Part shown: positions 9,017 to 19,967 of the stretch, piece by piece
Layout of the letters: each line of letters opens with the position of its first letter
Position numbering within the stretch: position 1 is the first letter of the stretch
Assembly: GCA_963820525.1 (NCBI GenBank)
Contig: CAWGAA010000003.1
Coordinates: 64,001-128,000 of the forward strand
Direction: 5' to 3'
DNA: 64,000 nucleotides
Origin: an uncultured Spirochaetota bacterium
GTDB taxonomy: Bacteria; Spirochaetota; Spirochaetia; SZUA-6; Fen-1364
Made by a program: the position numbers and the translations under genes
The notes under the pieces: generated by a model
The model's input: only the letters and a program-made list of their open reading frames with translations
The model's database searches: none
Told to the model about the DNA's origin: nothing

Positions 9017-10044
9017 TGCGGCACGATCACGGTGCGTATCCCGCCCTCGAACCTTTCCAGCGCGTCGAGGGCATCATTGACGGCTTCGGCGTCCAGCGGG
9101 ATGGTGCGCGTGACAACGCGCGAGAGGTCCAGCGCACCCTCTCGCGCCAGCTCGATCAGGGGGGGAAGCTCGTGGAGCAGGTGATCGTTTGAGCCGATCA
9201 GCTCCGCCTCGTTTCCCAGAAGCTCCCTGTAGGTGTCGAGCTGGAGCGGCTCGTCGCTTATCCCGACGATCACGGCCCGGCCCCGGACGGCGAGGCTCTG
9301 CACCGCCTGGCGCATAGTCTGCGCCCTGCCCACCAGCTCGAGGGCTACGTCAACGCCCTGCCCATCCGTCAGGCGGCGGATCTCGGCCACGGGGTCCACC
9401 GTGCGGGCGTTCACCGCCCTGGCGCCGAAGCTCGCCGCCAGGGCGAGCTTTTCCTCGTTCCTGTCCACGGCAAAGACGCGCAGCGCGCCGAAGGCCTTTG
9501 CCAGCTGCACGGCGGACATCCCCAGCCCCCCGATTCCGAAGACCGCGACGGTTTCACCCACATCCATGCCCGATTTTCGAAGGGCATGGTAGGAGGTCGC
9601 CGAAGCGCACATGAGCGTAGCCCCCTGCTCGAAGGGAATCTCATCGGGCAAGGGCACGGCATTGCGCTCCGGAACCGCTATGTACTCGGTGTAGCCTCCA
9701 TCCCTGTAATGGCCGATCATGAGGCACGTGGAGCAGAATTGCTCGTTGCCCTTCCTGCACTGCGGGCATTCGCCGCAGGTGATGTTGTAATGGAGGCAGA
9801 CACGGTCCCCTTCCGCGCGTTCCGTCACCTCGGCGCCCACCCGCGCCACTACCCCGGCCACCTCGTGTCCCAGGGTCATGGGCAGGGGTCGGACCGGCGA
9901 CCTCCCCGCCCGGTAGTGGACGTCGGAATGGCAGATGCCGGCGGCGCGGACGCGCACCAGGACGTCCTTCGGGCCAATCTCGGGCACGGGAACCTCTTGA
10001 AGCTGGAGAGGCCGCCCCACCTCGATCAAACGCACCGCTTTCAC
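9013..10044 (-). CDS. Zinc-dependent alcohol dehydrogenase (MDR family)
   Basis: GICHSD, GHE, structural-zinc CGECPQCRKGNEQFC, Rossmann GIGGLG. Confidence 0.92.
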   Translation of the reverse strand: MKAVRLIEVGRPLQLQEVPVPEIGPKDVLVRVRAAGICHSDVHYRAGRSPVRPLPMTLGHEVAGVVARVGAEVTERAEGDRVCLHYNITCGECPQCRKGNEQFCSTCLMIGHYRDGGYTEYIAVPERNAVPLPDEIPFEQGATLMCASATSYHALRKSGMDVGETVAVFGIGGLGMSAVQLAKAFGALRVFAVDRNEEKLALAASFGARAVNARTVDPVAEIRRLTDGQGVDVALELVGRAQTMRQAVQSLAVRGRAVIVGISDEPLQLDTYRELLGNEAELIGSNDHLLHELPPLIELAREGALDLSRVVTRTIPLDAEAVNDALDALERFEGGIRTVIVPQ

Positions 10045-10102
10045 TGCACGTCCTCCCTTTGGCGGCCAGCATCGACGGAGGCGGCCGCCTCCCTGCTGCG
10101 GC

Positions 10103-10663
10103 TCAAAACCACTTCGAGACTTTCAAGCCCGGCTTCCACTGCACCACATATTCTACGGCCTGCCGGGGCGTGGAAACCACGGCGTACAGGGCGCGGAAAA
10201 CGGGCTTTGCGAACTTCTCGGCATACAGCCGCTCGAAGACGTTCACGAGGGGGTCGTAGAACCCCTCTGTATTGACGAAGGCCACCGGTTTCGACAAGAG
10301 GCCGAGCTGGCCCAGGGTGATGATCTCCAGCACCTCCTCGAGGGTCCCGAAACCCCCGGGAAGGGAAATGAAGGCGTCCGAAAGCTCCTCCATCTTCGCC
10401 TTTCTCTCCCTGAGGTCCGCGGTGACAACGAGGCGGTCAACGTCCGAGTCGGTCCTTTCGGCGATGAATCTCGGGATCACCCCGGTTACGGCCGCCCCGT
10501 TCTCCCGGGCGGCCCGGGACACCGCGCCCATGAGCCCGAAACGTCCGCCGCCGTAGATGAGGGAGTGGCCCTCACGCGCGATACGGGCGCCAAGGTCGGA
10601 CGCCGCCGCCACGTAGCCGTCCGCCACGGCGCTGCTGGAGGAGCAGAAGACGCAGATGTTCAT
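10103..10663 (-). CDS. LOG family (TIGR00730-type) nucleotide-binding protein
   Basis: MNICVFCSSS, YGGGRFGLMG, PGGFGTLEE. Confidence 0.92.
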   Translation of the reverse strand: MNICVFCSSSSAVADGYVAAASDLGARIAREGHSLIYGGGRFGLMGAVSRAARENGAAVTGVIPRFIAERTDSDVDRLVVTADLRERKAKMEELSDAFISLPGGFGTLEEVLEIITLGQLGLLSKPVAFVNTEGFYDPLVNVFERLYAEKFAKPVFRALYAVVSTPRQAVEYVVQWKPGLKVSKWF

Positions 10664-16635: not shown

Positions 16636-16669
16636 AGCCCGAAGCCTGAGCCGGCTTCGGGCTTTTTTT
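16636..16669 (+). terminator. Rho-independent terminator
   Basis: AGCCCGAAGCC-loop-GGCTTCGGGCT followed by a T tract, between convergent genes. Confidence 0.9.
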
Positions 16670-18323
16670 ATACGAAAACGTAACGCTTTTTCTGAAATAG
16701 ATTAGCGATGAGCAGGAGAAGCAACACGATACCCAGGCTTTGGGGAAAGTAATCTCCAAACCGCGTGTAGAAGGTAAGGTTTTTTTCCTTATATATCGGG
16801 ACTTCAATCGAAAGCCATTTCCTTTCGAACAATGGCAGGCTTGCGAGAATCTCTCCCTTGGGGCCGACAACCGCCGTGACCCCGCCATTGGTTGATCGGA
16901 CCAGGACCCGCCTGTTCTCGACCGCTCTGAGGCGCGCAACCTGGAAATGCTGGATCTCGGATGAGTTCGTCTTGGACCAATAATCGTTTGTCAGGTTGAT
17001 CCACATGTCGGCCCCATCGAGGATGAAACGACGGCAGAGGTCCGAGTAGGCGTCTTCGAAGCAGATGGGCCCGCCGAACGTGAAGCTTCCCCCGGATGAG
17101 AGGGGAGCGGTAAAAATCGTGATCCTGCTTCCCATGGTCCAGGCATTGGTGATTCCAACCACCCGCCTGAAAAACTCGGCCACTACCTTGTGCTCCGAGA
17201 AAGGGATGTTCTCCGCAAAGGGAACGGGATGGATCTTTCCATAGGTATCGAGAACCTTCCCCTCCGGCGACATGAGGACGGCCCCGTTCATAAACTGCTG
17301 CTTCTGGAGGTCCAAGACCACCACGCCACCGAAAAAGGTATGAATCCCGATCTGCCTGGCGAATGGCATGAGGCGATTGTTCCGGGGGCGGAACTGCCTG
17401 TCGGCCATCACCCAGATGCTGGACACCGAGCCTTCGCTCCAGACGGCAAGGTCTGCGGGAAGCTTTGTCTGTCTCAAGCCCTCGAGGGTCAGCTCCTCGT
17501 TGATGGCCACGCTCTCAGTCACCGCCGCGCCTTCGTTCCACGGATCGATGTCCTGCTGGACCAGGAGGAGCTTGACCGTGCCCGTCGAGGGGACCGGCTG
17601 GGCCATCCTGTACAGCCCGTACGCGAGGACCAGCGCAATCACGATCAGGCCGAAGGCGGCTTGGCGTGGGAAGAGCCCGAGCCGGAACGCCGGCTTTATC
17701 AGGATCCCGTCTTGCAGAGCCGAGCGTGAATCCCACGGCGGGGCCGCCCGACAGGCGAACAGGATCCCTTCGGCGATGAGGGCGTTCACCGCAGCCATGA
17801 GAAGCGACAGGCCCCAGACTCCGGTGACATCGATGAACTGGATCAGCGGGAGCACGTTCTCCACCGGATATGCGACGAGGCCCCAGGGAAATCCGAGGTA
17901 CCCGATGGACTTGAAGTATTCGTAGACGGCCCAACCCGCCGCGAGGAGGAACGGCCTGTAGGCCGGCCTCATCCTGCTGAAACCGCGGAGAAAAGGAAAC
18001 AGGAGCGAGTTGTAGCCGGCGTATCCCAGGATGACTCCGCCGTACGTCCACACCGAGTAGCCTTGAAAGAACATGAGCCAGTAGTTGGCGAGGGCCGTGG
18101 ATAGCGCCCCGAAGAGCACGCCGAGAAGCGATGCGAACCCGAAGGTGGGAGCGCGGCTGATTGCGATGAATACCGGCACAAGACAGACGATCCCGATTGC
18201 CGCGTTGCCGTAATTGAACAGCTCATTCGGCAGACCCAGCGGCAGGAGCACGGCGGAGAGCGCCGCAAGGCCGACGAGGGGCCACCTCGACGAAGGCGGA
18301 AAAGCGGCTGTTTCGATATTCAT
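16668..18323 (-). CDS. lnt: Apolipoprotein N-acyltransferase
   Basis: Multi-TM N-terminus, GFPW, WSE, YGKIHPVPFAE, ICFED, NLTND, RSTNGGVT. Confidence 0.93.
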   Translation of the reverse strand: MNIETAAFPPSSRWPLVGLAALSAVLLPLGLPNELFNYGNAAIGIVCLVPVFIAISRAPTFGFASLLGVLFGALSTALANYWLMFFQGYSVWTYGGVILGYAGYNSLLFPFLRGFSRMRPAYRPFLLAAGWAVYEYFKSIGYLGFPWGLVAYPVENVLPLIQFIDVTGVWGLSLLMAAVNALIAEGILFACRAAPPWDSRSALQDGILIKPAFRLGLFPRQAAFGLIVIALVLAYGLYRMAQPVPSTGTVKLLLVQQDIDPWNEGAAVTESVAINEELTLEGLRQTKLPADLAVWSEGSVSSIWVMADRQFRPRNNRLMPFARQIGIHTFFGGVVVLDLQKQQFMNGAVLMSPEGKVLDTYGKIHPVPFAENIPFSEHKVVAEFFRRVVGITNAWTMGSRITIFTAPLSSGGSFTFGGPICFEDAYSDLCRRFILDGADMWINLTNDYWSKTNSSEIQHFQVARLRAVENRRVLVRSTNGGVTAVVGPKGEILASLPLFERKWLSIEVPIYKEKNLTFYTRFGDYFPQSLGIVLLLLLIANLFQKKRYVFV

Positions 18324-18525: not shown

Positions 18526-18572
18526 ATTCTTGACAACCGGCGCCCTCGTGGAGTAAATTGCGCCTGAAAAAT

Positions 18573-18647
18573 CGGGCTGTAGCGCAGCTGGTTTAGCGTA
18601 CTTGCTTGGGGTGCAAGGGGTCGGCGGTTCAAATCCGCCCAGCCCGA
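18573..18647 (+). tRNA. tRNA-Pro(GGG)
   Basis: Acceptor CGGGCTG/CAGCCCG, anticodon arm CTTGC-TTGGGGT-GCAAG, T-loop TTCAAAT; no encoded CCA; TTGACA at 18530. Confidence 0.96.
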
Positions 18648-18673
18648 TTTTCTTCATCACGACCCGCCAAAAA

Positions 18674-18928
18674 TCATAGGATTTCACCCTTCACAAGTTG
18701 CCACTCAAGAGATTCCCGATCCCTTCTGATGATGAAGAGTTCTCCGGCCGAAGTGCGGACCTTGAAGTAATCCGCTGCTGCAATGGCCGGATCCCGGCTC
18801 GCCTGAAACCACCTATCGACGATTTCCTCTACGTCAAAGCGTCGGTTGTTCCAGGAGAAAGAGCGGGGCGTCTCATCGGATTTGTAGCCCGCGTAGCAGT
18901 CGACTCGGATCGGAACAAGGCGGAGCAT
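18674..18928 (-). CDS. Small conserved beta-rich protein (DUF6504-like)
   Basis: IRVDCYAGYKSDETPRSF...EEIVDRW...DYFKVRT...EW pattern; start uncertain. Confidence 0.6.
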   Translation of the reverse strand: MLRLVPIRVDCYAGYKSDETPRSFSWNNRRFDVEEIVDRWFQASRDPAIAAADYFKVRTSAGELFIIRRDRESLEWQLVKGEIL

Positions 18929-19116
18929 GTGCGGCGTTGAATATACTCTCTTGCATCTTTCTTCGCCAGTCGACGGGCAACGACCTGAGATCGCTTTCAT
19001 GCTGGAATGGGTGGAAAAGTATCGCTGATTGCCTCCGCGACGAACGCGGAAGAAGCACGAGAGGGCTCTCGCAAACTTGAGACCCCGCCATCGCTGGGCC
19101 TTCGCCGATCAAGCGT

Positions 19117-19145
19117 TTGACTGTTGCGGGGACGAGTGATAAGAT
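19117..19145 (+). promoter_or_regulatory. Sigma70 promoter of the tail-tube gene
   Basis: TTGACT (19117-22), 17 bp spacer, TAAGAT (19140-45) with extended TGn; AAGGAGG RBS before ATG 19187. Confidence 0.7.
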
Positions 19146-19186
19146 CCGTTGGTTCTCGTTAATAACGTGCTATAAGGAGGAACGAA

Positions 19187-19699
19187 ATGAAGAAGTTTCT
19201 AATGGGCATCCTTGTTATGTTATGTTCTTCGGCCATCGCGATGGCGAGTCCAAACGACCAGAAAAGGGACGGCCATGGCGATTTCCTGCATTTTACCCTG
19301 GAAATTGAAGGCTTGTCTGTTGCAACTTTCACTTCTGTTCATGGGTTGGATATTGAAACCGAGATTATTGAATACAGGGATGGCGAAGACCAGATATTAA
19401 GGAAGCGTCCCGGCAGCACCAAATTTAGCAATCTTGTTTTGAAAGGGGGGACACTTCTCTCCAACGAGCTCTGGGCCTGGTATTGGAGCGTTCTTCAGGG
19501 AAGAGTCGAAAGAAAGAGCGGGTCTGTGGTGGTGACGAACAGCAGTGGAGTGGAAATTGTGCGTTACAATTTCTTTCACGCTTTTCCGTGCAAGTGGAAG
19601 GGATTAAGTTTTGATGGTTTTATGATGGAGAAACCAGTGGAGGAGATCGAATTGGCTGTGGAAGAAATAGCGAGAGTTTCCGGCGGAGACCAGGGTTAG
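19187..19699 (+). CDS. T4 gp19/Afp-type tail-tube protein with N-terminal signal peptide (orphan)
   Basis: FTLEIEG...F..V.GL..E.EIIEYRDG...RKRPG..KFSNLVLK.G...LW.W...G.VERKSGS...RYNF..AFPCKW.G...EEIELAVE matches the eCIS tube signature; preceded by MKKFLMGILVMLCSSAIAMA. Confidence 0.85.
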   Translation: MKKFLMGILVMLCSSAIAMASPNDQKRDGHGDFLHFTLEIEGLSVATFTSVHGLDIETEIIEYRDGEDQILRKRPGSTKFSNLVLKGGTLLSNELWAWYWSVLQGRVERKSGSVVVTNSSGVEIVRYNFFHAFPCKWKGLSFDGFMMEKPVEEIELAVEEIARVSGGDQG

Positions 19700-19802
19700 G
19701 GGAACGCCGACAATCAAGAACTTGTTGCCGAATGGGCCGGCAGATCGAGCATCCGCCGGCCCATTCGCTTAGGGGAACGCTGCAGCTTCGAACACCGGAA
19801 CG

Positions 19803-19967
19803 TCAGGCATTGCCCCTCTTGCCCGCTTCCTTCTGCACCTTTTCAATTGACCGCTTCGCCTCGAGCAGTATCGCCTTCATCCGATCGAGGTCGCCCAATC
19901 GCGCGCTGTTGCCATCCTGGCGCGCCGCTTTCTCGGCTTCCTGCACCACGCCGATGAGATCGTTCAC
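19803..19967 (-). CDS. 54-aa helical ORF coupled to the SCO gene (or gene remnant)
   Basis: GTG overlaps the SCO TGA; MNDLIGVVQEAEKAARQDGNSARLGDLDRMKAILLEAKRSIEKVQKEAGKRGNA. Confidence 0.3.
   Translation of the reverse strand: MNDLIGVVQEAEKAARQDGNSARLGDLDRMKAILLEAKRSIEKVQKEAGKRGNA

Follow-up and report, generated by a model that had tools for sequence, protein, structure and literature searches.

The window analysed here is a 64,000-nucleotide stretch of the genome of an uncultured Spirochaetota bacterium (GenBank assembly GCA_963820525.1, contig CAWGAA010000003.1, positions 64,001 to 128,000; window coordinates below are counted from its first base). It contains a plus-strand open reading frame (ORF) at 19187-19699, the tube gene, whose 170-aa product joins a predicted Sec-type signal peptide to the tube domain of contractile phage tails and injection systems. 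A sequence-only reading of the window had proposed that this is an orphan tube protein, domesticated for a role outside the cytoplasm. The gene and its signals are arranged as follows, with position 19117 marking the first base of a promoter-like hexamer and not the start of the ORF.

19117..19145, plus strand: sigma-70-like promoter match, TTGACT-17-TAAGAT, with TG preceding the -10 element (9 matches in 12 positions)
19174..19180, plus strand: Shine-Dalgarno sequence AAGGAGG, 6 bases 5' of the ATG at 19187 (read from the sequence)
19187..19246, plus strand: residues 1-20, predicted to be a Sec-type signal peptide with MKK as n-region, FLMGILVMLCSSAI as h-region and AIA/AMA as c-region
19247..19696, plus strand: predicted mature protein of ~150 aa, with the tube domain at residues 35-161 (19289-19669)
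19729..19767, plus strand: hairpin with 17-bp arms, 30 bases 3' of the stop codon, without a U tract (repeat search)

The promoter and ribosome-binding site that had been read from the letters are both present, the promoter by consensus match only: a scan returned two sites against 0.6 expected in shuffled sequences, TTGACT-17-TAAGAT among them. The gene is also AT-richer than its surroundings, as had been noted, with a GC content of 0.47-0.50 over 19050-19649 vs 0.59-0.69 on both sides. The 3' hairpin (minimum free energy -37.6 kcal/mol, z -1.67) is possibly a terminator or an RNA-stabilising stem; it occurs only once in the genome, not as a repeated element. Two copies of a perfect 12-nt direct repeat, TTAGGGGAACGC, bracket it at 19696-19707 and 19769-19780, the first overlapping the stop codon, and the combination of hairpin and repeat resembles a small insertion with a target duplication, though it is unique in the genome. 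When four DNA runs were compared, two studies had runs whose contigs contain identical pieces of the tube gene, and the contigs of the four runs also include one diverged piece of 151 nt.

The protein is a true member of PF06841/TIGR02241, and it is not filed as a component of a contractile injection system (CIS). Residues 35-161 match PF06841 (Phage_T4_gp19) with an E-value of 6.5e-32 and 110.6 bits (cut-off 28.2), and NCBIfam TIGR02241 is matched with 93.5 bits (cut-off 62.4), which bears out the T4 gp19/Afp tube signature recognised from the translation. From a 142-row alignment, AlphaFold2 gave a model with a mean predicted local distance difference test score (pLDDT) of 81.2; block means are 82-96 for most of the domain, and residues 9-30 stay below 50. 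The model keeps all strands, the helix and the long hairpin of the CIS inner-tube fold. Searched with Foldseek, the model matches the Algoriphagus tube 7adz best (7adz_1a, Alg1; E 8.6e-11, template-modelling (TM) score 0.76 by target), and 7adz, 6j0b, 6rao and 7b5h are all found with probability 1.00, target-normalised TM scores of 0.75-0.77, E-values from 8.6e-11 to 2e-09 and 28-36% identity; Hcp, lambda gpV and T4 gp19 follow at lower ranks. The same entries are recovered by sequence when the family profile is compared with the PDB (7adz at 6.2e-38), and a protein atlas search returned PF06841 clusters only.

These structural neighbours are tubes of extracellular contractile injection systems (eCIS), namely Alg1 (7adz), Pvc1 (6j0b), Afp1 (6rao) and Anabaena All3324 (7b5h). 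They belong to the same Pfam/TIGRFAM family, adopt the same fold and, like the NCBIfam CIS1 family, have a domain of the same length; however, eCIS tubes are cytoplasmic, leaderless and encoded beside sheath genes, whereas the window protein has a Sec leader and lies in a genome without sheath, baseplate or spike matches. The equivalog cut-offs for the CIS1 inner tube (40.5 bits vs 220) and the CIS5 tube adaptor (71.2 bits vs 260) are not reached. The higher score on CIS5 than on CIS1, and a fold shared with the tube initiators/adaptors Afp5/Pvc5 (6j0n_n), bring the latter into consideration, but the CIS5 score is far under its cut-off and Afp5 works on a baseplate, none of which was matched in the genome. 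Hcp from type VI secretion systems (T6SS) and T4 gp19 belong to the same tube-fold superfamily (6bdc Hcp1, E 5.7e-07; 5w5f T4 tube, E 1.5e-04). Hcp ends up extracellular as well, but by way of the T6SS and without a signal peptide, and the T6SS sheath family VipB was not found in the window genome. No phage relatives were detected by tblastn in 50,697 phage records or among PHROGs, and no PADLOC defence-system family matched the tube protein at E <= 0.01.

What sets the protein apart is its N-terminus, MKKFLMGILVMLCSSAIAMA-SP, in which an MKK n-region is followed by 14 uncharged hydrophobic residues and then by AIA/AMA. The n-region is charged, the h-region lies within the 7-15 residues expected of substrates of Sec and signal peptidase I (SPase I), and small residues at -3/-1 fit cleavage after A18 or A20 (AIA-M, AMA-S). 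This call rests on n/h/c anatomy and on comparison with relatives; the anatomy is as the sequence-only reading described it, and a leader is common to many divergent homologues. Export of the tube protein is well supported in silico.

The orphan status described for the window extends to the whole genome. All family searches covered its 5.05 Mb (4 contigs, 96.67% complete), where PF06841 has a single match and hence no second tube gene is present. There were no matches to six partner families, namely the sheath families Phage_sheath_1 (PF04984), Phage_sheath_1C (PF17482) and VipB (PF05943), for each of which the control was positive, and GPW_gp25 (PF04965), Baseplate_J (PF04865) and the gp5/VgrG-type spike Phage_base_V (PF04717). 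For Pvc16_N the control itself was negative, and that family is not counted among the six. No eCIS, T6SS or phage-tail partner was found by this search elsewhere in the genome. The genome also encodes Omp85 (two matches) and Lnt (16668-18323, Pfam), which indicates a diderm host, where the periplasm would be the default destination of a cleaved Sec substrate.

Leaders recur among the relatives of the protein. In an exhaustive search of 1.84 billion cluster representatives (50%-identity clusters), 3220 matches were obtained at E <= 0.001, and a hydrophobic-leader heuristic places a leader ahead of the tube domain in 77 of the best 149 besides the query. This proportion is biased upward, since matches with a leader gain score from the leader of the query. 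Five of the 77 fit the lipobox pattern and are possible lipoproteins. One leader-bearing relative, P0144, belongs to a cultured organism, Desulfatiferula olefinivorans. As a control, ~120 tube ORFs from 80 loci were taken, each beginning at the first start codon that follows the stop codon upstream; the heuristic flagged five of them, and on reading only one (L109) was accepted. A word-indexed search gave nearest proteins (50-60% identity, 143-153 aa) without the extension, and among the 120 matches listed four were extended: besides the query, these are three proteins of 175-180 aa whose extensions end in VLAQ, including one from a metagenome-assembled genome (MAG) of Dehalococcoidia. These three and the window protein are included in a set of 58 small, single-domain leader-bearing proteins (150-200 aa), all of which start with Met and which have a median leader of 21 aa; K/R precedes the h-region in 57 of them, and a -3/-1 site precedes the domain in 57. 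A leader is, as a feature, common to many divergent homologues, and the general premise that tube proteins lack signal peptides fails in the sequence databases, where a large set of PF06841 proteins carries them. We found no paper on tube proteins with signal peptides in the full-text literature, a search that left subscription journals largely outside, and the set of leader-bearing PF06841 proteins is broad and, as far as this search goes, unstudied.

In some relatives the tube domain is fused to further modules behind the leader, fibre repeats among them. Tandem tube domains (P0121, P0132, P0226), tube plus CIS_tube (P0182) and collagen repeats plus tube (L156) were each found, as was a recurrent DUF5667 - tube - Kazal architecture in proteins of 620-990 aa (P0143, P0172, P0216, P0246), of which we know of no description. 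Since Kazal and collagen modules typically occur in proteins that lie outside the cytoplasm, these fusions support export of the tube domain in the relatives concerned. Two giant proteins, P0133 (5355 aa) and P0233 (5053 aa), match the tube protein over five stretches; by the heuristic P0133 has a leader at its N-terminus as well, and it shows putative Hcp-like motifs.

The distribution of the leader was followed on a tree computed from the tube domain only, with 142 rows and without the leader columns. The leader label is clustered, with 13 changes vs ~45 in shuffles (0 of 500 as low), and at least three label changes are forced by well-supported branches; the window copy itself is closest to leaderless tubes. 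Loss of the conserved R-G at positions 87-88 was weighed as a candidate mark of exported copies: the two residues are kept in 28 of 58 leader-bearing vs 62 of 84 leaderless rows, with only three independent pairs on starred branches. A placement of the window protein in a 13-row group of leader-bearing proteins only (SH-aLRT 87) was judged unreliable, as constraining the tree to join it with the leaderless P0002 group improved on the free quick tree by 45 log-likelihood units (p-AU 0.842). Searching with a profile from a 13-row alignment brought up leaderless tubes for the most part and contributed nothing further.

The gene neighbourhoods of relatives fit a separation of leader-bearing tubes from injection machinery, but fall short of proof. 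Neighbour ORFs of 80 genome loci were clustered, with frequent clusters confirmed by Pfam (sheath, Pvc16_N, CIS_tube+LysM, Phage_GPD, gp25), and 80 metagenome loci were scanned with profiles from those clusters. For leaderless tubes, counted at loci with at least 5 kb on both sides, a sheath gene was present in 33 of 47 genome loci and 15 of 21 metagenome loci (48 of 68 together). No CIS genes occur in the four leader-bearing loci with readable flanks (the window, L047, L109 and L156) within the stretch covered, and a fifth, L193, was too short to judge; the placeable leader-bearing tube genes outside the window are thus orphans as well. At the level of genomes, a sheath match was found in none of three with a leader-bearing tube (G000, G256, G461) and in four of five with a leaderless one (G286, G442, G414, G471; G241 is without). 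L156 and L193 are the only true leader-bearing loci of the metagenome scan; two further flags of the heuristic, L202 and the second ORF of L150, were dropped after their sequences were read. Three leader-bearing loci from elsewhere are arranged as follows.

L047 (G256), 9324-9884 and 9912-10469: two adjacent leader-bearing tube genes (186 and 185 aa) in a housekeeping-gene setting, between msrAB-like and lysS-like genes
L109 (G461): tube gene behind a large RND-type transporter gene in an Endomicrobiales MAG
L156, 1552-2475, 2485-2994 and 2991-3698: a 307-aa protein with leader, collagen repeats and tube domain, next to a 169-aa leader plus tube protein, with an archaeal-type SPase I gene directly adjoining the pair

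The contig of L156 is archaeal (diphthine synthase). No neighbour is common to the leader-bearing loci, and the gene therefore seems to act alone or with a paralogue; the pairing at L047 suggests a two-subunit assembly.

Among leaderless tubes, Myxococcota-type MAGs contain a conserved gene of 143 aa, starting with MPNRRAFDHIGNFN, that has no sheath gene in the surrounding 10 kb. Leaderless Myxococcota-type tubes without a sheath at that distance account for 14 of the 47 genome loci with full flanks (a subset of L091-L128), L088/L093 and L108/L120 being examples of leaderless orphans from the same MAGs, and the MPNRRAFDHIGNFN-type genes may be a second kind of orphan tube. Separately, a cluster of ORFs that are UvrA-like by reading alone recurs in 16 of the 80 loci. 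In G286, three tandem paralogues (C1:268656-277066; L036, L040, L042), each with an open frame of 315-346 aa, start with a leaderless tube domain that is followed by a long extension at the C-terminus; this 2.9 Mb genome also has sheath genes.

The nearest sequences to the window protein are leaderless Myxococcota-type orphan tubes of 143-153 aa (the P0002/P0046 and MPNRRAFDHIGNFN groups; 50-63% identity), with P0002 at 63%. The window protein aligns without insertions or deletions to most leaderless relatives, with Met19 on their Met1, and the C-terminal tail of P0002 is found in the window protein too; these nearest relatives have no leader. For the one member of the P0002 group that could be placed, L097, no CIS gene lies within its short flanks. 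We infer that the window gene derives from leaderless tubes of a Myxococcota-type lineage. The coincidence of Met19 with the relatives' Met1 suggests that the reading frame was extended upstream of its former start and acquired the leader in this way, and the simplest reading is an 18-codon 5' extension that would leave the old start inside the cleavage region.

Around the tube gene lie the following features.

18572..18648, plus strand: tRNA-Pro (GGG), at the left edge of the low-GC stretch (ARAGORN; Rfam RF00005, 63 bits)
18674..19000, minus strand: 108-aa ORF with a weak DUF6504 match (PF20114, E 1e-05, 26.1 bits vs cut-off 24.2)
19803-19967, minus strand: 54-aa ORF, overlapping the SCO1/SenC start by four bases
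Minus strand, next after the tube gene: SCO1/SenC gene with the small upstream ORF

The 108-aa ORF is the divergent neighbour between tRNA-Pro and the tube gene, and the four-base overlap suggests that the 54-aa ORF and SCO1 form an operon; neither small ORF has a PADLOC or PHROGs match. The tube protein is absent from all 24 genomes of the same family that were searched, and homologues at 30-40% identity occur in four of five genomes of another family of the order, with at least two copies each. This absence, together with the low-GC islet by tRNA-Pro, points to horizontal acquisition beside the tRNA gene, which is possibly an integration landmark. No att-like direct repeat of the tRNA-Pro 3' end was found downstream, and SCO1 homologues at 11 same-family loci have no neighbours or tRNA in common with the window, from which the borders of an insertion could not be set.

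Taken together, we consider the gene to encode a stand-alone Sec-exported protein with a CIS inner-tube fold and no role in any injection machine, a reading to which we assign a probability of roughly 0.7. Translation would begin at ATG 19187 behind the strong ribosome-binding site, the 18-20-residue leader would take the protein through SecYEG, and SPase I would cut after AIA or AMA, releasing a soluble protein of ~150 aa into the periplasm of the diderm cell. The retained tube fold may still oligomerise there into rings or short stacks, an expectation drawn from the conservation of all strands and the long hairpin; the tandem duplicates, adjacent paralogue pairs and trimerising collagen stalk of relatives point to oligomerisation too. 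Such an oligomer would form rings or fibres and serve the envelope or matrix as a structural or binding module, not as a sheath-driven conduit, and an envelope or extracellular ring or stack module of this kind is, going by the model and by the relatives, the most likely mode of action. In a published secretome of Accumulibacter granules (PMC12019908), a Phage_T4_gp19 protein is reported to be the most abundant in a cluster of small beta-rich extracellular proteins; the paper does not state whether the protein carries a leader. A decoy against incoming needles is also possible, but has nothing in its favour, with neither a PADLOC match nor a defence-island context. Every part of the sequence-only reading's observation was confirmed, and its interpretation as a whole is partly supported.

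Several findings weigh against the reading of a stand-alone exported protein. The number of leader-bearing loci that inform on context is small (four loci and three genomes, and the genomes are not independent), and the remaining 20 of the 68 leaderless loci are orphans as well, which means that orphan status is not tied to the leader. Leader-bearing copies are also few in less biased samples, in addition to the upward bias of the 77/149 proportion: in a phylum sample, PF06841 occurs in 10 of 401 genomes and only two of these ten contain leader-bearing ORFs (three in all, the window's and the two adjacent ones of G256), and among the 80 nearest loci of species genomes one (L109) has a leader. 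In a second phylum sample 2 of 301 genomes have PF06841, and a leader is present in one of the two. The window copy itself is a singleton that forms a one-sequence cluster and has no counterpart in the 24 same-family genomes. Its terminal branch is 0.86 long vs 0.01-0.12 for its nearest relatives (P0002 group), and of 58 columns with the same residue in at least 16 of 17 relatives it differs at 9 (R25Q, H29G, N35H, R77S, Y80F, R87G, Y89T, L116V, W133F), most others differing at 0-5. Such fast change since the split fits either a changed job or relaxed constraint and, for a singleton islet gene, makes the term domesticated uncertain. Finally, the protein counted from Met19 has exactly the relatives' length, so that a cytoplasmic form from an internal start is conceivable.

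One alternative is a decaying passenger, a foreign tube-gene fragment beside a tRNA, unexpressed or useless and drifting, with the leader as a by-product without consequence. The singleton status, the low-GC islet, the long branch and the altered near-invariant columns (R77S, R87G, Y89T and W133F among them) all favour this explanation, but the frame is intact for 170 codons, 49 of the 58 near-invariant columns are retained, and the domain is modelled confidently (pLDDT 82-96 over most of it). Moreover, the gene has a promoter-like site, a strong Shine-Dalgarno sequence and a 3' hairpin, contigs from two studies contain identical pieces of it, and the same architecture is maintained in many lineages. 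We thus regard decay as unlikely, although it fares better than the two other alternatives.

The internal methionine raises the second of these, in which the start has been misjudged and ATG 19241 begins a 152-aa leaderless cytoplasmic remnant, the 18 upstream codons being untranslated leader RNA that is open and hydrophobic by chance. This would account for the exact placement of Met19 on Met1 of the nearest relatives (MASPNDQKR vs MGADNRRDF) and for the lack of a leader in the relatives with the highest identity (P0002, 63%), and leaderless orphan tubes such as L097 do occur. However, AAGGAGG stands 6 bases before ATG 19187 and nothing comparable precedes ATG 19241; the ribosome-binding site thus belongs to the upstream start, which argues against a real start further downstream. 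The upstream codons form a textbook n/h/c leader, frames 5' of leaderless tubes gave only four spurious leader flags among the ~120 ORFs, and the same feature is present with unrelated sequence in many relatives, all of which makes a misassigned start quite improbable. Least probable, and in our view very unlikely, is a membrane-tethered form in which an uncleaved signal anchor, or lipidation of Cys13 at a relaxed lipobox (VML-C), keeps the tube domain on a membrane surface: Cys13 is preceded by L-V-M-L, some bacterial groups tolerate Leu at lipobox -1, and lipobox-like N-termini were read in relatives such as P0148, P0194, P0255 and P0225 (the pattern flags 5 of 77), but the canonical lipobox [LVI][ASTVI][GAS]C is not matched with Leu at -1, the 12-residue leader ahead of Cys13 is unusually short, the 14-residue h-region is short for a membrane anchor, and two good AxA sites follow it.

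Returning to the reading of a stand-alone exported protein, a broader proposal can be built on it together with the leader-bearing relatives, one that we hold only tentatively and consider more doubtful than not. Sec-exported tube-fold proteins may form an undescribed functional class that arose repeatedly from injection-machine tubes by signal-peptide gain and assembles sheath-less rings or short tubes in the periplasm, at the surface or in the matrix. Members could serve in capping or binding the tube tip of incoming contractile phage tails, tailocins or T6SS/eCIS needles, and the window gene would be a young member caught just after a leader was added upstream of the old start.

Phage-tail, eCIS and T6SS tube proteins are taken as cytoplasmic parts that need a sheath and a baseplate. 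A recurrent set of tube-domain proteins with Sec leaders, some of them joined to typical extracellular modules, would give the tube fold a second life outside the cytoplasm, in bacteria and on at least one archaeal contig, raising the questions of whether it forms rings or fibres in the envelope or matrix, binds cargo as Hcp does or interferes with incoming needles. There is also a consequence for annotation, as genes of this kind carry the name 'phage tail protein' and may pass for markers of a prophage or eCIS that is not there. The window copy would be an evolutionary snapshot of this transition, in which the old start codon seems to survive within the cleavage region of the new leader.

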